Shown in pieces: positions 2,354-20,616 of a stretch of DNA of 64,000 bases. Location of the stretch: assembly GCF_013315695.1 (NCBI RefSeq), contig NZ_CP054353.1; one strand, 5' to 3'. The notes under the pieces were generated by a model. The model saw nothing but the letters and a program-made list of their open reading frames with translations, had not been told where the DNA came from and ran no database searches. Source of the stretch: Escherichia coli. Its GTDB lineage: Bacteria > Pseudomonadota > Gammaproteobacteria > Enterobacterales > Enterobacteriaceae. Made by a program: the position numbers and the translations under genes. Each line of letters starts with the position of its first letter. Within the stretch, counting starts at the first letter, position 1.

Positions 2354-3373
<1,020 letters not shown>

Positions 3374-8438: not shown

Positions 8439-8594
8439 TTACTCCTCAGGTTCGTAAGCTGTGAAGACAGCGACCTCCGTCTGGCCGGTTCGGATTCGTA
8501 CCTCGCAGAGGTCTTTCCTCGTTACCAGTGCCGTCACTATGACGGTTAAACAGATGACGATCAGGGCGATTAACATCGCCTTTTGCTGCTTCAT
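8439..8594 (-). CDS. hokD: Hok-family type I toxin HokD/RelF (51 aa)
   Basis: Manual translation: MKQQK... at 8594 and ...EPEE-stop at 8439; 52 codons; below the ORF-track cutoff. Confidence 0.8.
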   Translation of the reverse strand: MKQQKAMLIALIVICLTVIVTALVTRKDLCEVRIRTGQTEVAVFTAYEPEE

Positions 8595-8665
8595 AGCCTG
8601 CTTCTCCTGTCAACGCAAAGCAGAAGTGTCACCTTCGGTGCGAAACAGAGATGTCATGCTTTGGT

Positions 8666-8953: not shown

Positions 8954-9192
8954 CAGAGTTCATCCAGCGTCACACGTACTGGCTTAGGATTACGAAGCCG
9001 TTCTTTCACTATCTCCACAAGTTCAGCATCTTCATCACTCAGGAGTGTCTGTTTGAACGGCAAGCGTTCATTGTCAGCGATATACTCGAGCATGAGACGA
9101 AGCGCTTCAGAAGGAGTTACACCCATTTTTTCAAGCGCGGCGTAAGAACGCGCTTTAAGTTCATCGTCAATACGCAGGTTAATGCTACCCAT
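8953..9192 (-). CDS. relB: RelB antitoxin
   Basis: 79-aa ORF MGSINLRIDDELKARSYAALEKMGVTPSEALRLML... (ribbon-helix-helix type). Confidence 0.9.
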   Translation of the reverse strand: MGSINLRIDDELKARSYAALEKMGVTPSEALRLMLEYIADNERLPFKQTLLSDEDAELVEIVKERLRNPKPVRVTLDEL

Positions 9193-9203
9193 GTCTTACA
9201 CCT

Positions 9204-9229
9204 CTTGTAATTACAAATGTCATTACAAG
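9204..9229 (-). promoter_or_regulatory. relBE operator region: two adjacent palindromes TTGTAATTACAA and TTGTAATGACAT just upstream of relB
   Basis: Inverted repeats read directly, 12 bp upstream of the relB start codon. Confidence 0.6.
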
Positions 9230-9522
9230 TATCGCACTACAACATGCTTAGGGCAAGTCACGAAGGAAGTCAGAAAGTAGTCGTAAGAACGGTGATCACT
9301 GTCCGCTTTGTGCCAGGAGCAGCCATTGCTAAGTCCATCCTGTATTGTGCAGGTCAGCTCGTTTTTAAAGAGTCCGGCCATCATCTTACTGGTACAGACA
9401 CCATATACTTTGTGACGGTCAGGCTACATATGCACAACTCAACTTATTCATCTATTTTTTGCTTTAGCATGTCAGTGTTGCTTTCTCGTCGGCGGGTGAG
9501 CGGTGACCTGACCTGTCGATAA
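9217..9522 (+). CDS. ydfV: Prophage protein YdfV (hypothetical)
   Basis: 101-aa ORF divergent from relB; positional assignment. Confidence 0.45.
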   Translation: MSLQVSHYNMLRASHEGSQKVVVRTVITVRFVPGAAIAKSILYCAGQLVFKESGHHLTGTDTIYFVTVRLHMHNSTYSSIFCFSMSVLLSRRRVSGDLTCR

Positions 9523-9674
9523 AGGAACGTAACACGTTTTATGCAACACCCGCATGCGGCAGAAAATTATTGCCGAACGTTTACCCCTGTCAACAAGCTT
9601 TACTTTCTGAGGCGCGCCAGCCCGCGAGGAAAACAATCTGAACATCAAACAATTAATGACACAAGAAATACGAT

Positions 9675-9701
9675 TAAAGATTTTTTTGTGCATGCCGATA
9701 G
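9675..9701 (+). promoter_or_regulatory. Sigma-28 (FliA) type promoter: TAAAGATT-N11-GCCGATAG upstream of flxA
   Basis: Match to the class 3 flagellar promoter consensus TAAAGTTT-N11-GCCGATAA read directly; ~25 bp upstream of the flxA start. Confidence 0.6.
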
Positions 9702-9724
9702 TGCTTTTTTAAAAGGAGAAATCT

Positions 9725-10057
9725 ATGTCTGTCACAATTCAGGGAAATACCTCAACCGTTATTTCAAACAACTCCGCCCCGGAAGGAACATCAGAAATAG
9801 CCAAAATCACAAGACAAATTCAGGTGCTGACTGAAAAGCTTGGGAAAATCTCATCGGAAGAGGGGATGACGACACAGCAGAAAAAAGAAATGGCTGCATT
9901 GGTACAGAAGCAAATTGAAAGCCTCTGGGCTCAACTGGAGCAGTTGTTAAGGCAGCAGGCAGAGAAAAAGAATGAAGACGCGACAGTTCAGCCTGATAAA
10001 AAAGAAGAGAAAAAAGACGATACAAATACCGCTGGCACCATTGATATTTACGTCTAA
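9725..10057 (+). CDS. flxA: FlxA (FliA-regulated protein)
   Basis: 110-aa ORF MSVTIQGNTSTVISNNSAPEG... with a coiled-coil-like middle and Lys/Glu-rich tail. Confidence 0.8.
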   Translation: MSVTIQGNTSTVISNNSAPEGTSEIAKITRQIQVLTEKLGKISSEEGMTTQQKKEMAALVQKQIESLWAQLEQLLRQQAEKKNEDATVQPDKKEEKKDDTNTAGTIDIYV

Positions 10058-10429
10058 GTGACAGCCGTATTGTGGCCCTCATCGGGCCACTTTTCGCCAT
10101 CAGCCTTTTCTTTAAAGACATATTATCTTTGTATCATTTCTGATAGTTAACATTACAAGATATAAGTAATGGACGCACTCCCAATTAGTCTATTTAAATC
10201 GCCACGAGTTTAACTGACAACCCATGATCAATTATGAATTGCAACTATTTCTGTAGTCACTTTTGTGGGGACAGTCCACAAAACTGCCAACTTCCGCTTC
10301 TTGCTCTTAGCGGACATTAGCATAGGCTATTTACCATAACGCCTCATTACGCGCACCGCCCAGACTGACTCAGCGCGTTTCTGGCATATCCCCGGTAAAA
10401 CAAGTAACAAACCACCCGAAAATGAACAC

Positions 10430-11900
10430 CAGAAACGCGACTTAAGAATCTACCCTATGAATGGATATGCACTCAACCGAATCGATCTTGGTTTCAATCT
10501 TTTTTATCGGGATCAGGCTTCTTTTTAGGTAACTTCGGGGGCTTAACTTGCTGATGACTTTGCGTTCGGCGCGTAAGCCAGGGATGGTCAGCTTTAGGTT
10601 TAACATAGTATTTTGAGCGTAAATCAATACGGGCATTATCCACTCGTTCATGGACACTCTTTTCATCATCCAGTGGTATAGGCTCCGGGCCATCAACATA
10701 CTTTTCCCAGCCCAGCGCTTTCCCGTCATACAGAACGTTAATTTCACCGTCAAAGTTCTCGCATACAGTAACAACCGAATGCCTAAGTCGATATCCCCGG
10801 CCCTCACTGCGTACCTGAAACGCACTGCTTTTGTACTGGAAAGTGAGATTTTTAGACAGAACGCGCTTCGCCTGTAGGCTGAAGATATAACCCAGTTCCT
10901 CTTCAGAATGGTGCACATCAAGATGAGCATTATCAGTAGTACGAGGCGACGTAGCGAACCGGTTGTTATAGGCTTCAATAAAGGTCGGCAACCATGCATT
11001 TGCTGTTTCAATATCACTGATATTCTGAAGCCGCATTTCTTTGACCAGCCTGTCCTGTAGTGTCTGATTGGCGCGCTCTACCCGCCCTTTTGCCTGCGGG
11101 CTGTTGGCATGGATTGGCTCGATGCCCAGTGTCTTTATCGCACGAGTGAACTGGGTCAGCTCACCTTCCCGCTCTGGGTTATTTACCCTGAATATACTGT
11201 GTCTATCAGAGTAGAGAGCGAGCGGTACGCCATGATCATTAAGGTAACCCCGGAGGGTTTCCATGTAAGCCCGGGTTGTTTCAGCAGGCACAAAACGCAA
11301 CGCCATCAACGCACTGGTGGCATCATCAATGAAAACGATCAGTGTACATCTGGGGCCTCGATTTTCAAACCAGTCATGAGGTGAGCCATCAATCTGGATC
11401 AGTTCACCGTAAGATGGTCGTCGCATGCGGCGTTGATATATACGGGCAATTTTACGACGGCGTTCACGCCATAACCCCTCTTCTATCATCCACTTTCTGA
11501 GAGTTTCAACGGATAAAGATAAACCGTGTATCTCGCGCAATTTTTCGCACGCAAACGTAGGTCCAAAATCAGCGTAACGGCCTTTGAGGAGTGAAATTAC
11601 TGTTGCTCTGAATTCAGTAGAAAAGGAATTATTAGGACGCTTTCCACGTCGGTGGGAAACCAGAGCAGAAGGCCCTTCATTTCTATACCGTTGCACCAGA
11701 CGTTTAACCTGCCGAATAGAAATGCCAATGCGTGCCGCAGCTTGTTCCTGAATAATCTGAAGTCGGTGGAGTTCCTTATGACTCATCGTAACAGTCTCTT
11801 TGATCATGAAAAATCCCCCAGAGAATTGTCTGGGGACATTTTAGAATGGTTCAAAGGGGACATTACAGCTTGGTGTTAACAATAGCCTGCTTCTCCGTGC
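10430..11900 (-). mobile_element. Probable insertion sequence carrying a single DDE (rve-type) transposase; boundaries approximate
   Basis: Single 437-aa transposase ORF flanked by non-coding DNA with GGGGACA-type repeats and a candidate imperfect terminal repeat (AGGCTATT... at ~10330 and ~11885); ends not resolved. Confidence 0.4.
10494..11807 (-). CDS. DDE transposase, integrase-core (rve) type with N-terminal HTH (IS481/ISNCY-like)
   Basis: 437-aa ORF with N-terminal HTH (AARIGISIRQVKRLVQRY) and core ...IDGSPHDWF...FIDDATS...YSDRHSIF...SPQAKGRVERANQTLQDRL... Confidence 0.6.
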   Translation of the reverse strand: MIKETVTMSHKELHRLQIIQEQAAARIGISIRQVKRLVQRYRNEGPSALVSHRRGKRPNNSFSTEFRATVISLLKGRYADFGPTFACEKLREIHGLSLSVETLRKWMIEEGLWRERRRKIARIYQRRMRRPSYGELIQIDGSPHDWFENRGPRCTLIVFIDDATSALMALRFVPAETTRAYMETLRGYLNDHGVPLALYSDRHSIFRVNNPEREGELTQFTRAIKTLGIEPIHANSPQAKGRVERANQTLQDRLVKEMRLQNISDIETANAWLPTFIEAYNNRFATSPRTTDNAHLDVHHSEEELGYIFSLQAKRVLSKNLTFQYKSSAFQVRSEGRGYRLRHSVVTVCENFDGEINVLYDGKALGWEKYVDGPEPIPLDDEKSVHERVDNARIDLRSKYYVKPKADHPWLTRRTQSHQQVKPPKLPKKKPDPDKKD

Positions 11901-12141
11901 CTTTCGGCACGTAAGAGGCTAACCTACATGTGTCTAGCATGAAATTGGCCTCAGATTAATGTTAAGCGTCTTGCAGGACGCGTAATGTTAACTGGGGCTT
12001 TTCTCTATCTGCCGTTGGTGTCCATGCCCGAGGCAGATAGCCTCAAGCACCCGCAGTCATTCTACTTAACTAAGATTTCCCCGCAAACCGTTTTTGTCCA
12101 GCACAGTAAATATCCAACTAAACCAATGGAGTTCGCTGTAT

Positions 12142-12321
12142 TTACCGCCAGTATTCAATGCACATGACCGCCATGAACACCCCTAAAAAAAGGGCATTTA
12201 TATATCCAAATATTAATATCAAAACATCAACTTTTTCCATATACCTTGCTGTGAAGATGATGGGCATACATGATGCGAACAACCAGAACGCAACAAACAA
12301 AAACTGCAATGCGTTTTTCAT
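12142..12321 (-). CDS. Small hydrophobic two-TM protein (59 aa), hypothetical
   Basis: ORF 12142..12360; internal start MKNALQFLFVAFWLFASCMPIIFTARYMEKVDVLILIFGYINALFLGVFMAVMCIEYWR preceded by a strong AGGAGG Shine-Dalgarno. Confidence 0.4.
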   Translation of the reverse strand: MKNALQFLFVAFWLFASCMPIIFTARYMEKVDVLILIFGYINALFLGVFMAVMCIEYWR

Positions 12322-13473
12322 TATTCCTCCTACAATCAATGTGCAATTACATTTAAACACACCTCAATTTGGCCGGACATATAAATATCTAAACCAGAAA
12401 AAATCACTTACATAGCGTTACAAACTCTTTAGTCTAAAGGTTCATCGTAAAACATTCCCCATACTTATCAGTCCGTTCCGCGCCAGGTAGCTCATTGCCT
12501 TATCTGGCAACCTGTAATCAGGTTTCCGCTTTTTCAGTTGGCTGGTCGTTTAACCGACATAGTTAATCCATTAATCTAGTTGCCGGATGTTGGTGGATTT
12601 TCGCGTTTTAGTTGTTCATAAAAGTGCACAGCTTTAACCAGTTCTTCTGATGTAACTGGGACTGGTGAGGCAGTGAATAAGGCCTGAATTTGATAGTTCG
12701 GCCTGTCGTTACAATCCTCTTTTTTCGGTACATATTTCCAGTCACCAGACCACTACTTCCCCTGAAAGTCCGTAACGCCTTTTTTTACGTAGCGATATCG
12801 CCATGCCACTGGTTTTGCTTGCCCCGCCGTTTCATGCCCTTCCTGATAATTAATCTCGCTCATTCATCGCCCCACTCATCACAATATGCTTCGACCGGAG
12901 TTTTTCCCGCTTCATAGTCATCACGCTAGGATTCGACATCAGCAGCACTTCCACCGCGTAACTCACCATAGTCCATTAATAGTTCATCCCGCTCTTCAAA
13001 ACTGATGTTATATTTAGCTGAACAAAAATCAGCCACTTTGTTCTTCCTCATCGTCTTTTATTTCGTGGTATGAGTAATTGCAGTAGTTAAAGAAAATTTC
13101 TTATGCTCCGTCATGAATTTCCTCAGGTGTTGCGTCATCGTCCACTTCGAATACATCCTCAAAATCTCCACCAGCTATTCCCGTTTCAATAATAATTTTG
13201 AACTTTCGCATTTCACTACCGCCCTTTCGGGCGGCCTCCTGATGTTCTGAGGGTGCAGAAATCCATCCGGTTAAGGATTAAATTTTATTTACAGAACTGA
13301 ATTTAATTATTCAGATATACGTATCTGTAGCCTTACGAATCTACTCACTGGATGCCTCTTTCATAAAAATAATCCAGTGGGTTTTATCGTTTTTTCCCTG
13401 TTCGTTGACAGATAACAGGTTTTCTGTCTGTCAGTGCCAGAATCTGGCTTACCGGTATTTGCGTTTCATTCCA

Positions 13474-13830
13474 TTAAAAAATCAGAACGCCGTGCGGCCT
13501 CAACACCCGAAAGGCTTCTTTAAATCTCTGTCGCGAATCATCACGCCAGGCATCTTTATTCAGCCGTCCATATTTCTTTCCCATCCAGGCGTTATCACCA
13601 ACACTCTCAAGATGCGGAGGGTCTAATACAACCATCGAAAAAGATGCGTCTGCAAATGATAATGCACGAAAATCTGCGATAATGTCAGGGCTGATAATCA
13701 AGCGTCTCCCATTGCGTAATGTGTATCCTTCTTTTCTGATATCGCTGAATATCGCCCGTTCGTCAGACTTATCGAACCAGAACATGCGGCTGCCACAGCA
13801 CATATCAAGAATGGTTGCCGGTGCACTCAC
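13474..13830 (-). CDS. DNA methyltransferase-like protein, probably C-terminally truncated
   Basis: 118-aa ORF with SAM-binding-like motif ILDMCCGS and catalytic-like motif VVLDPPH; ends abruptly after PHGVLIF. Confidence 0.4.
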   Translation of the reverse strand: MSAPATILDMCCGSRMFWFDKSDERAIFSDIRKEGYTLRNGRRLIISPDIIADFRALSFADASFSMVVLDPPHLESVGDNAWMGKKYGRLNKDAWRDDSRQRFKEAFRVLRPHGVLIF

Positions 13831-14249
13831 TGCGCCACGTCCTGAAAATTACCCTGATAGAAAGCCAGTATGCGCTGCATAACTTCGCTCTTCCGGCACT
13901 CGCGACAGATTATGTTTAGGCGACTGTCGTAGCGACGTATTTCTCCGTCAGGTGATGACCAGATAAGGTCCGGATCAACCACAGCAGGTTTCTTCACCTT
14001 TGCCCTCGAGAGTTTTTTGCGGGCGTTTTGCCAGTCCTTACGCGCCTGTTCAGAGGGGAATAACCCGTAGCCGGAGTTGTATACATCGCCACTGGCTACC
14101 AGCTCTCTGGCAAGAACGCTCATCAGATATCTAGTCGCACCTGTTTTAGCTTCCAGTTGCCGTAACGTCTCACGGCCGCTCTGGCGCACGAGTTCCACCA
14201 CCTGCCATTTAATTTTTTCCCGCTCTTCTTGTGTAAAAACTTTTGCCAC
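13827..14249 (-). CDS. Hypothetical phage early-region protein (140 aa)
   Basis: ORF between the replication-initiator-like gene and the methyltransferase-like gene, overlapping start/stop; no family recognised. Confidence 0.35.
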   Translation of the reverse strand: MAKVFTQEEREKIKWQVVELVRQSGRETLRQLEAKTGATRYLMSVLARELVASGDVYNSGYGLFPSEQARKDWQNARKKLSRAKVKKPAVVDPDLIWSSPDGEIRRYDSRLNIICRECRKSEVMQRILAFYQGNFQDVAQ

Positions 14250-14289
14250 AAGTCCCCCTTAAAATTACCTCATGACCTGAAATCAACAC

Positions 14290-15255
14290 TTATCCTCTGA
14301 AACCAGGCGGAATTTCTGTATCCGGTTCAGAAATATGATTAACACAACGCTGTACAGGTGAACGTCCCAGGCGGATGACCAGTTCGTCCCATTTTTCGCG
14401 GAGCTTTGACGGGCTCATGATGTTTTTTACCCAGAATGGATCTCGCTGAACCCGACCAAACATTTCGCAAATTTGTCTGTGGCTTCTGCCATCCAGCATC
14501 CGCATTGTGCGCACGTCATTGGCCCAGGCAGTCCAGTTAGGCTCTTTTGGTCGCATGATCTCGCCATCATCACTGGCTGCCTGTTCGTAGAGACCCACGA
14601 TCCGCCCCCAGATCCACTGCGCACACGCCAAATCCTCCCTGCTACCCCACTGGCGTTTTTTCGCACTAAACACAACCGCGTCGGAGTTCCGGGTTAAAAA
14701 ATCCTGTTCAGTCGTCTGCGGGTCCGGTTGCGAAGCTTCCGGACGAAAAGTGTTTTTATTCTCTGTAGTAATCTCTGTTGTATTCTCTGTAAGATCATCA
14801 GGCCATTTTGACCCGATGACATTGGGTCGTTTTGAACCAATGGAGCGTTTCATTTTGACCTCTTCCATCGTGTCATTTTGACCTGATGGAGCGGCGCATT
14901 TTGAACCGATGGATTCGCTCAATTTGCCACCATCTAAAAGCTCGCTCCCATAGTTGATCGTGTAGAAATTGGTCATATCGCGCTTTGATTTATTGAGCTT
15001 TTCACAACGCAAAAGCCCCAGCGTTTTCAGACTTGCAAACGCGCGCTTTAACGTTGACTCTGACCAGAATGGGAACTGTTCCAGCCATTGTTCCGTTGTG
15101 TTATAAATCCAGCGAACACCATCACATTCCATGCCGGAGTTGGTATCTCTCAACCAGTAGTGCAGTTGTTGCAAAACAATGGCTTCGTTTAAGCCAATTT
15201 TCATTGCCAGCTGCGTGTTTATAACCAGTGGGCGTTCAGCAAAAAGAAGGCTCAT
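14290..15255 (-). CDS. Phage replication initiator-like protein (lambda O-like), iterons inside the coding sequence
   Basis: ORF 14290..15309 (likely start MSLLFAERPL at 15255); the SIGSK...SIGSK...VIGSK peptide repeats are encoded by a DNA iteron array. Confidence 0.5.
   Translation of the reverse strand: MSLLFAERPLVINTQLAMKIGLNEAIVLQQLHYWLRDTNSGMECDGVRWIYNTTEQWLEQFPFWSESTLKRAFASLKTLGLLRCEKLNKSKRDMTNFYTINYGSELLDGGKLSESIGSKCAAPSGQNDTMEEVKMKRSIGSKRPNVIGSKWPDDLTENTTEITTENKNTFRPEASQPDPQTTEQDFLTRNSDAVVFSAKKRQWGSREDLACAQWIWGRIVGLYEQAASDDGEIMRPKEPNWTAWANDVRTMRMLDGRSHRQICEMFGRVQRDPFWVKNIMSPSKLREKWDELVIRLGRSPVQRCVNHISEPDTEIPPGFRG
14803..14935. repeat. Iteron array (~6 copies of CATTTTGA(A/C)C(C/T)GATGG at ~23-bp spacing); candidate prophage replication origin
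   Basis: Repeats read directly at ~14803, 14827, 14850, 14873, 14896 and 14919. Confidence 0.6.
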
Positions 15256-15757
15256 AATTCCATCCAGCTTTTTGTTGGTATTGCTGTCGATACGCAAGTT
15301 TGAAAGCAATTGCTTTTTCTATAAGTTCGTCAGTTTCACGATCCACTACGGCAGGATCAGCAAAAAGCAGTCCGGACTCCACCACATCGCCATATTCTTT
15401 GTTTAACCCGGCGATCATGCACGTGATGCTTTTTCCGTCAGTAATTTCACGATACAACCTGAAATCATTAATCCGGATAGCCTCCATAATTGCAGGCACT
15501 AGCGCCGTGAACTTTTCACGCTTATCCCTAGTGTCGATAGCCTTCCAGCGTTCAAATATCTTCACTCGATTAACGCCAAGCGCTCGCTGATCAATCGCGC
15601 CACCTTCATATGTGACACGCTGAACATCGATGTTCGGGCGCTCTTTCAAAGCCCAGAATGCTTCAGTGATTAATATCGTCGCCTGCTCCTGTGTCATTCC
15701 TGGTCGACATATCCAGGCATCCAGAGCCTCACGAGCCTGTTCAGGAGTGATTTTCAT
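15236..15757 (-). CDS. Hypothetical phage early protein downstream of the Cro-like gene (173 aa)
   Basis: ORF overlapping the dicC stop; no family recognised. Confidence 0.4.
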   Translation of the reverse strand: MKITPEQAREALDAWICRPGMTQEQATILITEAFWALKERPNIDVQRVTYEGGAIDQRALGVNRVKIFERWKAIDTRDKREKFTALVPAIMEAIRINDFRLYREITDGKSITCMIAGLNKEYGDVVESGLLFADPAVVDRETDELIEKAIAFKLAYRQQYQQKAGWNYEPSFC

Positions 15758-15971
15758 TGTTCAACCGCCCCGCCCGCTTCGTCTTACGATATTCATCATA
15801 AACTTTGGGATCATACTGAAGCTCCCCGCCAGATGCCTCCTGTAGACGCATCGCGCGACCTTCGGGAACTAAATCCCCTTTCCAGCTATAAAGCGAAGCC
15901 AAACGAATACCTGCTGCTTGTGCAAGTTTTGTTTTTGAACCGAAATACAAAAGAGCGTCAGTTTTAAGCAT
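15741..15971 (-). CDS. dicC: DicC, Cro-like regulator of dicB
   Basis: 76-aa ORF MLKTDALLYFGSKTKLAQAAGIRLASLYSWKGD... (HTH), divergent from dicA. Confidence 0.8.
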   Translation of the reverse strand: MLKTDALLYFGSKTKLAQAAGIRLASLYSWKGDLVPEGRAMRLQEASGGELQYDPKVYDEYRKTKRAGRLNNENHS

Positions 15972-15988
15972 TTAAAACACCTTTATTG

Positions 15989-16052
15989 TTAGTCATAACT
16001 AACAAGATAGATGTTAACAAAAACATAGTCAATACGATTTAGCATTAGCTAA
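15989..16052. promoter_or_regulatory. dicA-dicC intergenic operator region with palindromes TTAGTCATAACTAA and TTAGCATTAGCTAA
   Basis: Inverted repeats read at 15989-16002 and 16039-16052 between divergent HTH regulator genes. Confidence 0.55.
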
Positions 16053-18162: not shown

Positions 18163-19326
18163 TTGTTCATCCTTAAATCTGTCATGAGGTTAAAACAAAT
18201 GAGTAAAGTCTTTATTTGCGCCGCTATTCCTGACGAACTGGCAACAAGGGAAGAAGGCGCTGTGGCTGTAGCCACAGCCATTGAAGCTGGCGACGAACGC
18301 CGTGCTCGAGCAAAATTTCACTGGCAATTCCTGGAACATTATCCGGCTGCTCAGGACTGCGCTTATAAATTTATTGTCTGCGAGGATAAACCTGGCATAC
18401 CCCGCCCTGCCCTCGATTCATGGGATGCTGAATATATGCAGGAAAACCGCTGGGATGAGGAGTCTGCTTCTTTTGTCCCGGTTGAGACTGAATCCGATCC
18501 GATGAACGTCACTTTTGACAAGCTGGCCCCTGAAGTACAGAACGCTGTCATGGTTAAGTTCGACACATGTGAAAACATCACCGTTGATATGGTTATTAGC
18601 GCACAGGAATTGTTGCAGGAAGACATGGCAACATTCGACGGACATATCGTTGAAGCGTTGATGAAAATGCCAGAAGTTAACGCCATGTATCCGGAGCTTA
18701 AGCTGCATGCCATCGGGTGGGTTAAGCATAAATGTAAGCCTGGTGCCAAATGGCCCGAAATTCAGGCAGAGATGCGCATCTGGAAAAAACGTCGCGAAGG
18801 TGAACGTAAGGAAACCGGAAAATACACGTCTGTTATTGATCTCGCCCGCGCCAGAACCAATCAACAGCACAGTGAAAATTCAACAGGAAAAATCAGCCCG
18901 GTCATTGCTGCCATTCATCGCGAATACAAGCAGACATGGAAAACACTGGATGACGAACTGGCCTACGCTCTCTGGCCTGGTGATGTGGATGCCGGAAACA
19001 TTGACGGCAGCATCCATCGCTGGGCAAAAAATGAAGTTATCGACAACGACCGCGAAGACTGGAAGCGTATCTCGGCATCAATGCGCAAACAGCCTGATGC
19101 CCTTCGCTACGACCGCCAAACTATTTTTGGCCTTGTCCGTGAGCGTCCGATCGACATTCACAAAGATCCCGTAGCACTGAACAAATATATCTGCGAATAC
19201 CTGACGACAAAGGGCGTGTTTGAGAATGAAGAAACAGACCTGGGCACTGTTGATGTTCTCCAGTCATCAGAAACACAAACTGATGCAGTGGAAACTGAGT
19301 ATTTCCAGACATCTGTTATCACTTAA
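18163..19326 (+). pseudogene. ydfE: ydfE-like prophage gene whose 3-prime end runs into IS2 (C-terminus replaced by IS-derived codons)
   Basis: ORF continues 27 bp past the IS2 boundary at 19300 before stopping; true start uncertain (candidates at 18199 or 18403). Confidence 0.55.
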
Positions 19327-20202
19327 CCCATTACAAGCCCGCTGCCGCAGATATTCCCGTGGCGAGCGATAACCCAGCGCACTATGCGGATGCCATTCGT
19401 TATAATGCTCGAACGCCTCTGCAAGGTTCTTTGCTGCCGTTAACCCGTCTGGTTTGGGCATGATACTGATGTAGTCACGCTTTATCGTTTTCACGAAGCT
19501 CTCTGCTATTCCGTTACTCTCCGGACTCCGCACCGCCGTGTTCTTCGGTTCAAGTCCCAACATCCGGGCGAACTGGCGTGTTTCATTAGCCCGGTAGCAT
19601 GAACCATTATCCGTCAGCCACTCCACTGGAGACGACGGAAGATCGTTGCCGAAGCGGCGTTCCACCGCTCCCAGCATGACGTCCTGTACTGTTTCACTGT
19701 TGAAGCCGCCGGTAGTGACCGCCCAGTGCAGTGCCTCACGATCACTGCAGTCCAGCGCGAACGTGACACGCAGTCTCTCTCCGTTATCACAGCAGAACTC
19801 GAACCCGTCAGAGCACCATCGCTGATTGCTTTCTTTCACGGCCACTCTGCCTGTATGTGCCCGTTTCGATGGCGGTACAGCAGGTTTTCGCTCAAGCAAC
19901 AGCGCATTCTGGCGCATGATCCGGTAAACACGTTTGGCATTGATCGCAGGCATACCATCAAGTTCTGCCTGTCTGCGAAGCAGCGCCCATACCCGACGAT
20001 AACCATACGTGGGCAGCTCTCCGATAACATGGTGTATACGGAGAAGCACATCCGTATCATCAGTGTGACGACTGCGGCGGCCATCCATCCAGTCATCGGT
20101 TCGTCTGAGAATGACGTGCAACTGCGCACGCGACACCCGGAGACAACGGCTGACTAAGCTTACTCCCCATCCCCGGGCAATAAGGGCGCGTGCGCTATCC
20201 AC
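19267..20202 (-). CDS. insD: IS2 transposase OrfB (InsD) with ~10-codon C-terminal extension into flanking DNA
   Basis: 311-aa ORF; body matches InsD through ...[11 protein letters not shown], then continues [10 protein letters not shown] because the normal stop lies in the missing IS2 terminus. Confidence 0.85.
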
Positions 20203-20616
20203 TTTTTTGCCCGTCCATATTCAACGGCTTCTTTGAGGAGTTCATTTTCCATCGTTTTCTTGCCGAGCAGGCGCTGGAGTTCTTTAATCTGCTTCATGGC
20301 GGCAGCAAGTTCAGAGGCAGGAACAACCTGTTCTCCGGCGGCGACAGCAGTAAGACTTCCTTCCTGGTATTGCTTACGCCAGAGAAATAACTGGCTGGCT
20401 GCTACACCATGTTGCCGGGCAACGAGGGAGACCGTCATCCCCGGTTCAAAGCTCTGCTGAACAATTGCGATCTTTTCCTGTGTGGTACGCCGTCTGCGTT
20501 TCTCCGGTCCTAAGACATCAATCATCTGCTCTCCAATGACTAGTCTAAAAACTAGTATTAAGACTATCACTTAAATAAGTGATACTGGTTGTCTGGAGAT
20601 TCAGGGGGCCAGTCTA
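19300..20616 (-). mobile_element. IS2 copy (1317 bp), missing ~14 bp of one terminus
   Basis: insC/insD ORF pair; one end GGTTGTCTGGAGATTCAGGGGGCCAGTCTA intact at 20587-20616; the other end matches IS2 only from TATTTCCAGACATCTG inward. Confidence 0.8.
20160..20525 (-). CDS. insC: IS2 OrfA (InsC)
   Basis: ORF 20160..20570 with internal start [41 protein letters not shown]... Confidence 0.85.

Follow-up and report, generated by a model that had tools for sequence, protein, structure and literature searches.

Four probable unitary pseudogenes in the early-right operon of a Qin-type prophage of Escherichia coli

In agreement with a preliminary description that had reported a one-kilobase stretch with only fragmentary reading frames, all of whose pieces we were able to locate, the longest internal ORF-free gap of the window (the whole 64-kb stretch of Escherichia coli DNA analyzed here) was found at positions 12416-13473 (1,058 nt). 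This ranking is based on ORFs of at least 80 aa, which cover 83% of the window, and excludes gaps that touch the window edge. The GC content of the ORF-poor stretch is 42%, versus 48% for the window. Alignments to related phages and prophages indicate that the stretch very probably consists of four unitary pseudogenes in the early-right operon of a Qin-type prophage, i.e., non-essential accessory genes that were knocked out by ordinary mutation. The disabled genes are four consecutive early-operon genes on the minus strand, namely, a DNA methyltransferase gene, a DUF7167 gene (gene A), a gene of 58 codons (gene B), and a gene for a protein of the 171-aa type (gene C). In total, they carry nine disabling changes: five nonsense mutations, one start-codon change, two frameshifting indels, and one in-frame deletion. 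As read from the alignments, the decay is mostly by substitution and not by indels. Full-length relatives of the kind that the preliminary description had expected to find in a translated search do exist, but it had anticipated frameshifted genes, and only two of the nine lesions shift the frame, whereas five are nonsense mutations.

Each of the four genes has at least one disabling lesion and is colinear with an intact homologue elsewhere. Intact full-length versions with 84 to 93% identity are present in related phages and prophages, the records of which show the same gene order, with the three small genes intact at 60, 58, and 119 or 171 codons. Every fragment could be aligned colinearly with one of these intact genes (60, 58, 119 to 171, and, for the methyltransferase, ~162 aa), and the suggestion of decayed genes made in the preliminary description thus held. 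The region is coding in the relatives, and the relatives span the stops; none of the fragments, taken in its present form, corresponds to an intact small gene.

The element that hosts the region is a lambdoid prophage of the Qin type, which adjoins rspB in the closest annotated genomes. The annotated context in these genomes comprises the rspB/ynf neighbors, the dicA-dicC-dicB immunity region, and relBE-hokD, all of which are features of Qin. On the minus strand, the order of genes is integrase, xis, exonuclease (interrupted by IS2 here), ydfD, dicB, ydfC/B/A, dicA, dicC (cro), a ydaT-like gene, O, DUF977, methyltransferase, the ORF-poor stretch, an ISNCY transposase remnant, ydfW, flxA, ydfV, relBE, hokD, rem, ydfU, ydfT (Q), and csp together with lysis genes. 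The label "lambdoid nin region" given in the preliminary description is appropriate as to position, between the replication genes and Q, but was not borne out by any match to a Pfam Nin family. The nin region of lambda has an analogous position, its small, dispensable genes lying between those for replication and the Q antiterminator; it is without sequence relationship to the genes of the window, and genes A, B, and C match none of the NinB-NinH Pfam families.

A comparison with complete chromosomes showed that positions 12300-13900 have 100% identity to E. coli YSP8-1; with many further complete chromosomes of the species, those of ATCC 8739, W, and CE10 among them, the identity is 99.9%. 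Both flanks are 99.6 to 99.9% identical to the MG1655 feature annotated as "cryptic prophage Qin," on either side of a deletion in K-12. MG1655 is without window positions 10679-15477 (4.8 kb); position 10678 is joined straight to position 15478, and the ORF-poor block is gone. This deletion fuses the remnant of the ydaT-like gene (ydfX) with the ISNCY transposase remnant (ydfW). Qin (Kim) of K-12, with its pseudogenes ydfX, ydfW, intQ, and ydfE, is the same chromosomal element as that of the window, and the two have the dicBF/dicA/dicC, relBE-hokD, and csp gene sets in common. The K-12 version differs in the deletion of the 4.8 kb that contain the four pseudogenes, and the block is visible only in longer Qin variants, such as those of ATCC 8739, W, CE10, and the present window. 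The decay of Qin through mutation, IS insertion, and deletion has been documented (PMC6379469). In the window, an IS2 element at about 19267-20570 (minus strand) splits the prophage exonuclease gene, as it does in the closest match, isolate AF3, whereas YSP8-1 has IS1 copies in the integrase gene instead of IS2 in the exonuclease gene. Different Qin copies thus carry different IS insertions.

The first of the four genes (13341-13830, minus strand) is a pseudogene of a class I SAM-dependent DNA methyltransferase of ~162 aa when repaired. Its GTG start at 13830 overlaps the stop of the DUF977 gene (GTGA), and its ancestral stop is the TAG at 13341-13343. The repaired protein matched phrog_954, "DNA methyltransferase," over residues 5 to 161 (E 6.7e-80) and was colinear over its full length with genes of Stx2c, Klebsiella, and Salmonella phages (78 to 84% amino acid identity); a tblastn search aligned the entire query (100%) as a single piece in Stx2c phages. 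Two lesions were identified by alignment to an Stx2c phage (L006). (i) A nonsense mutation, K119* (AAA to TAA), is located at 13474-13476, where the phage reads ATTTTTAAATGG and the window reads ATTTTTTAATGG. It accounts for the apparent end of a 118-aa ORF that bounds the ORF-poor stretch. (ii) One extra base in a G3A6 homopolymer tract at 13390-13398 shifts the frame of the tail. The true tail, GKNDKTHWIIFMKEASSE, lies in another frame, and a three-frame translation of the tail recovered the conserved C terminus ...DKTHWIIFMKEA.SE. Unless both the TAA and the frameshift were repaired, there was no full-length match to PHROG 954 that included the C-terminal third. The upstream end of the ORF-poor stretch (13341-13473) is therefore not empty, being the cut-off C-terminal third of this gene. 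The match to Pfam Methyltransf_11 was below the cutoff (20.2 versus 21.2 bits), and a PDB sequence search returned no relative of the methyltransferase. The small orphan DNA methyltransferases of PHROG 954 in Klebsiella, Salmonella, and Stx2c phages are also located after the replication genes; compared to these intact proteins, the window copy is truncated at codon 119, and its frameshift falls near codon 146. The 118-aa stub retains the CCGS and DPPH motifs.

Gene A (13029-13211, minus strand; 60 codons) belongs to the DUF7167 family (PF23768; phrog_1997). Its reading frame is interrupted by K37* (AAA to TAA at 13101-13103), and the part before the lesion is the 36-aa piece MRKFKIII...HDGA of the preliminary description, which we found at 13101-13211 (minus strand). 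With codon 37 repaired, gene A matched PF23768 with an E value of 9.9e-14 and a score of 51.6 bits (cutoff, 24.4 bits), covering essentially all of the 60-position model, and phrog_1997 with an E value of 1.6e-29. Intact 60-aa versions were found in five of the related records (L003, L005, L007, L009, and L012), and the gene encodes 60 aa in 78 of 80 viral contigs. In comparison with its DUF7167 relatives, the window copy has, in addition to the TAA at codon 37, four more lineage-specific amino acid changes. No papers that mention DUF7167 turned up in the literature.

Gene B (12860-13036, minus strand) is a pseudogene of 58 codons with two lesions: the start codon has changed from ATG to GTG (13034-13036), and W37 has become a stop (TGG to TAG, 12926-12928). 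After repair, it matched phrog_519 with an E value of 1.6e-13. The intact 58-aa protein, MADFGSTKYNVSFEEWHELL...CDEWGDE, is encoded in L003, L004, L007, L009, and L012, and this length is found in 70 of the 80 viral contigs. A 41-aa piece, MRKNKVADF...VES, had been described here; it is present at 12926-13051 (minus strand), but its MRKNK portion is an artifact of ORF extension into the 3' end of the upstream gene; by homology, gene B starts with the GTG at 13034-13036. In strain ISHS7 (L011), the stop of gene B has gone one step further, from TAG to TAA. In phage vB_EcoM-606R7 (L005; positions 3211-3321), whose background is otherwise divergent, codon W37 is likewise a TAG stop. Annotation of gene B is absent from all RefSeq records that were inspected. 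The A and B proteins are small and very acidic, and one may speculate that intact A and B, as early-operon neighbors of an orphan methyltransferase, have a role in host takeover or antirestriction.

Gene C (12442-12863, minus strand) is a pseudogene of a 171-aa-type protein, as seen from its alignment to intact genes and, after repair, from its match to phrog_660 (E 6e-43). Its lesions are (i) a first stop at 12753-12755 (CCG to TAG); (ii) a 90-nt in-frame deletion with its junction at about 12589-12601, between AATCC(G/A)CCAG direct repeats of 10 nt, of which one is left in the window, compared to two, at a distance of 90 nt, in the intact gene; (iii) a second stop at 12576-12578 (CAG to TAG); and (iv) the loss of 4 nt at 12544/12545. 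Ancestrally, the gene ended with the TGA at 12442-12444. The part before the first stop is a 36-aa ORF, MSEINYQEGHETAGQAKPVAWRYRYVKKGVTDFQGK (MSEINYQ...), at 12753-12863 (minus strand), which was absent from the preliminary description. It precedes the open frame WSGDWKYV...TSGN, which is present at 12579-12752 (minus strand) as described, with 58 codons instead of 59. This frame had been placed directly after a 19-aa ORF in another frame, which proved incorrect, as the preceding ORF is the 36-aa one, in the same frame, across the single TAG at 12753-12755. Intact comparators encode 171 aa in E. coli FDAARGOS_1265 (WP_001289994.1; L007) and 119 aa in L004 and L005. The length of gene C varies widely among the 80 viral contigs (171, 119, 85, 156, 70, and other values), which fits a mosaic, dispensable gene. 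In L003 and L009, an A-run of gene C (about 12780-12786 of the window) has 2 additional bases, which shift the frame there as well. Sequence matches in the PDB to gene C were rejected as spurious, being due to low complexity, and NCBIfam contained no family for any of the five proteins examined. One of the comparators, PP818812.1 (L004), is labeled "Actinobacillus phage vB_Apl-pPE4" but has ~90% DNA identity to an E. coli lambdoid prophage over genes A to C, which makes its host label surprising.

The preliminary description had offered indels or sequencing errors as an alternative to decay. Two lesions do lie in or near homopolymers (the G3A6 tract of the methyltransferase gene and the A-run of gene C, the site of the frameshift in L003 and L009), as would be expected if homopolymer indels and miscalls in sequencing or assembly had disrupted intact genes. 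Seven of the nine lesions, however, are substitutions or multibase deletions, and all nine are identical, base by base, in six independently sequenced records (L001, L002, L010, L011, L013, and L014) from different laboratories and years, i.e., YSP8-1, PhiR42_1 (a phage record from ECOR13), PE164, ISHS7, CE10, and ATCC 8739. In addition, 471 complete-genome records are at least 99% identical over the segment, at least 80% of which is carried by 374 genomes. The identity in the six records and the level of identity in the 471 show that the lesions are real, and we attach a negligible probability to errors in intact genes.

Existing annotations are divided on these genes. PGAP independently lists gene A as a pseudogene ("internal stop") and gene C as a pseudogene ("frameshifted; internal stop"), the latter with the span given here. 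The methyltransferase gene is marked as "frameshifted; internal stop," again over the span given here, only in PE164 and ISHS7, whereas other genomes, with identical lesions, carry the 118-aa stub (13474-13830) as a normal protein, WP_001310834.1. The GenBank record of PhiR42_1 has coding sequences for the 36-aa fragment and for an out-of-frame 39-aa ORF. Entries of the latter two kinds favor a reading in which the short ORFs (36, 41, and 36 aa) are genuine microprotein genes and the longer homologues are fusions. We consider this very unlikely: the Pfam and PHROG profiles and all diverged relatives run colinearly across the stop positions, a conserved C-terminal part is still encoded past each stop in the same frame, the 60-aa and 58-aa forms predominate in the viral contigs (78/80 and 70/80, respectively), and the window lineage shows an excess of nonsynonymous change. 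The same in-frame position of all five stops relative to downstream conserved sequence might point to readthrough, by programmed recoding or suppression, so that full-length proteins would still be made. This has hardly any probability, as the stops are a mixture of TAA and TAG with no common context, a start codon has been lost and frameshifts have occurred in addition, the nonsynonymous elevation persists past the stops, and there is no suppressor tRNA, recoding signal, or Rfam match in 12400-13470. Under the preferred reading of four pseudogenes, the fragments would have no present function, although some residual function of the N-terminal fragments (the 118-aa methyltransferase stub and the 36-aa peptides) is conceivable.

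Several observations bear on how the four genes were lost. Changes specific to the window lineage amount to 5 nonsynonymous versus 2 synonymous in gene A and to ~10 nonsynonymous versus 4 synonymous in gene B, the latter including the loss of the otherwise invariant W16, whereas intact copies of gene B differ mutually by 0 to 1 nonsynonymous and 5 synonymous changes. Over the 118 codons of A and B that these counts cover, a small sample, the excess of nonsynonymous change in the window lineage is indicative of relaxed constraint. The decay appears to have been neutral. Selection might instead have favored the knockouts, if expression of the small, very acidic A and B proteins, of C, and of the methyltransferase by a resident prophage did harm to the host. 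Four adjacent genes are dead, while the frames of the flanking O, DUF977, relBE, and hokD are open; W37 of gene B is also a stop in the unrelated background of vB_EcoM-606R7 (L005), where the neighboring codons differ; and other early genes of Qin, dicB and ydfD, are known to be toxic. TGG, however, is the sole codon in which either G-to-A transition yields a stop, a different one in each case, and the recurrence of W37* is therefore expected. Moreover, 2 nonsense mutations among ~21 lineage-specific substitutions in A and B are, by our estimate, close to the neutral expectation, and the literature search returned no papers on DUF7167. Selection for inactivation is therefore regarded as unlikely, if less so than the alternatives above.

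Ordinary mutational decay, the preferred explanation, very probably proceeded as follows. The affected genes belong to a minus-strand operon with the order cro/dicC, ydaT-like, O, DUF977, methyltransferase, DUF7167, 58-aa, 171-aa type, small ORF, and sok/hok leader. Once the prophage was inherited vertically with the chromosome, its accessory genes would no longer have been held by selection, and they were knocked out by five nonsense mutations, one start change, a homopolymer +1 insertion, a 4-nt deletion, and a 90-nt deletion between 10-nt repeats. Gene C seems to have broken first, as the same lesions in it are found in prophages whose A and B genes are intact. In AST262 (L012), A and B are intact and C has all four lesions; vB_EcoS-640R1, deposited as a phage genome, and JJ1886 share the first TAG and the 90-nt deletion of gene C. 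These states suggest that gene C was lost in a phage-borne ancestor, when the element was probably still mobile, and that the methyltransferase, A, and B genes broke later, within the Qin lineage. As a last step, K-12 has deleted the whole segment. The absence of the segment from MG1655 and the length variation of gene C indicate that the genes are dispensable. The stretch is nevertheless kept at 99 to 100% identity across many strains, which is probably due to recent common ancestry of this Qin variant.

The leader of gene A has a particular structure. A strong Shine-Dalgarno motif, AGGAGG, is located at 13235-13240 (minus strand), 23 nt upstream of the DUF7167 ATG (13211), and three of its columns (G9, G10, and A11) are invariant in 22 distinct upstream variants from ~90 loci. 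A hairpin, mentioned in the preliminary description at about 13220-13240, is situated between this motif and the ATG. It is real, but its position is 13218-13236 (minus strand) and it reads GCCGCCCGAAAGGGCGGT, ending in T, which forms a G.U closing pair, and not in ...GGC. The hairpin, GG-CCGCCC-GAAA-GGGCGG-T, has six G-C pairs plus the G.U pair and a GNRA tetraloop, and it is present in both the minimum free energy and the centroid folds. In the folded state, its stem is separated from the AUG by 7 nt (UAGUGAA), so that the spacing between the Shine-Dalgarno motif and the AUG drops from 23 to 7 nt. In the split ribosome binding sites of phage T4, hairpins bring this spacing down to 5 nt for gene 38 (22 nt when unfolded) and to 11 nt for gene 25 (27 nt when unfolded) (PMC3014915). 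The geometry of the window leader is alike, its 7 nt falling within the 5- to 11-nt range of the T4 sites; it differs from these in that its 3' arm (GGCGGU) could act as a weak Shine-Dalgarno sequence and in that the downstream gene is dead here. In the 22 variants from ~90 loci, no measure, covariation included, exceeded the shuffled controls: 93% of the cells were paired, with one switch between G-C and A-U, and several of the variants carry A.C mismatches in the hairpin. By analogy, it is possible, but on balance doubtful, that the AGGAGG/GNRA-hairpin/7-nt/AUG leader found before DUF7167 genes at ~90 lambdoid prophage and phage loci is a functional split ribosome binding site of the kind of T4 genes 38 and 25. 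If so, it would be a structured element of translational control at a mosaic joint of temperate enterobacterial phages, and a fossil in the window, where the gene is dead.

Two other roles for the hairpin were rejected. As a rho-independent terminator, its stem is followed by AGTGAAATG, without a T-run, and it was not among the terminator-like sites; a boxB/nut-like site with the GAAA loop was dropped, the hairpin being far downstream of cro and no N homologue having been identified. A promoter scan found promoter-like sites to be no more common than in shuffled sequences, and an Rfam scan of positions 9000-16000 (E up to 1) gave nothing in 12400-13470, with sok, just downstream, as the only hit. 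Further upstream of gene A, an inverted repeat of 6 bp, CTGAAT-aattaa-ATTCAG (CTGAATAATTAAATTCAG), at 13297-13314 (minus strand) holds stops in all three frames (TGA, TAA, and TAA). Homology with relatives that have other upstream genes (L003, L004, and L005) begins exactly at this repeat, which in these alignments looks like the boundary sequence of a mosaic joint.

Downstream of gene C and outside the decay, an intact ORF of 59 codons is found at 12142-12321 (minus strand), encoding a very hydrophobic sequence (MKNALQFLFVAFW...; MKNALQFLFVAFWLFASCMPIIF...) behind a near-perfect Shine-Dalgarno sequence (AGGAGGAATA-ATG). It is conserved in L007 to L009, and conservation of the DNA segment to which it belongs (12100-12640) extends to ~1,500 E. 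coli genomes. No match was found in Pfam, PHROGs, or NCBIfam, and a search for diverged homologues yielded only three near-identical phage records. The E. coli copies have four variable sites, all of them nonsynonymous, and the inspected RefSeq and GenBank records have no same-strand gene annotated there; the status of this ORF as a gene is, from its sequence, uncertain. The decayed block is bounded downstream by an orphan sok/hok-leader element at 11881-12052 (minus strand), which matched Rfam RF01794 (sok) over its full length with 104 bits (gathering score, 59) and was also aligned by BLAST to FDAARGOS_1265 (L007). Compared to the uninterrupted locus of this strain, the window has an insertion of ~3.27 kb that consists of the ISNCY transposase remnant, ydfW, flxA, ydfV, and relBE. 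It is situated exactly at the hokD coding start, with a 16-nt overlap of the joints (8594-8608 and 11882-11897), and parts hokD from its sok/mok leader. This insertion agrees with the reported integration of relBE into the hokD locus (PMC6379469).

Taken together, the pseudogenization is ordinary and largely annotated already, in a well-known cryptic prophage, and its biological import is small, being a textbook case of accessory-gene decay in a grounded prophage. For annotation, the data are of value in three respects: gene B (12860-13036) is missing from RefSeq, the methyltransferase stub passes as a normal protein, and at least one GenBank phage record lists dead fragments as genes. The ordered states, from FDAARGOS_1265 (intact) via AST262 and the window to K-12 (deleted), illustrate, cleanly and on a small scale, how prophage genes are lost step by step.
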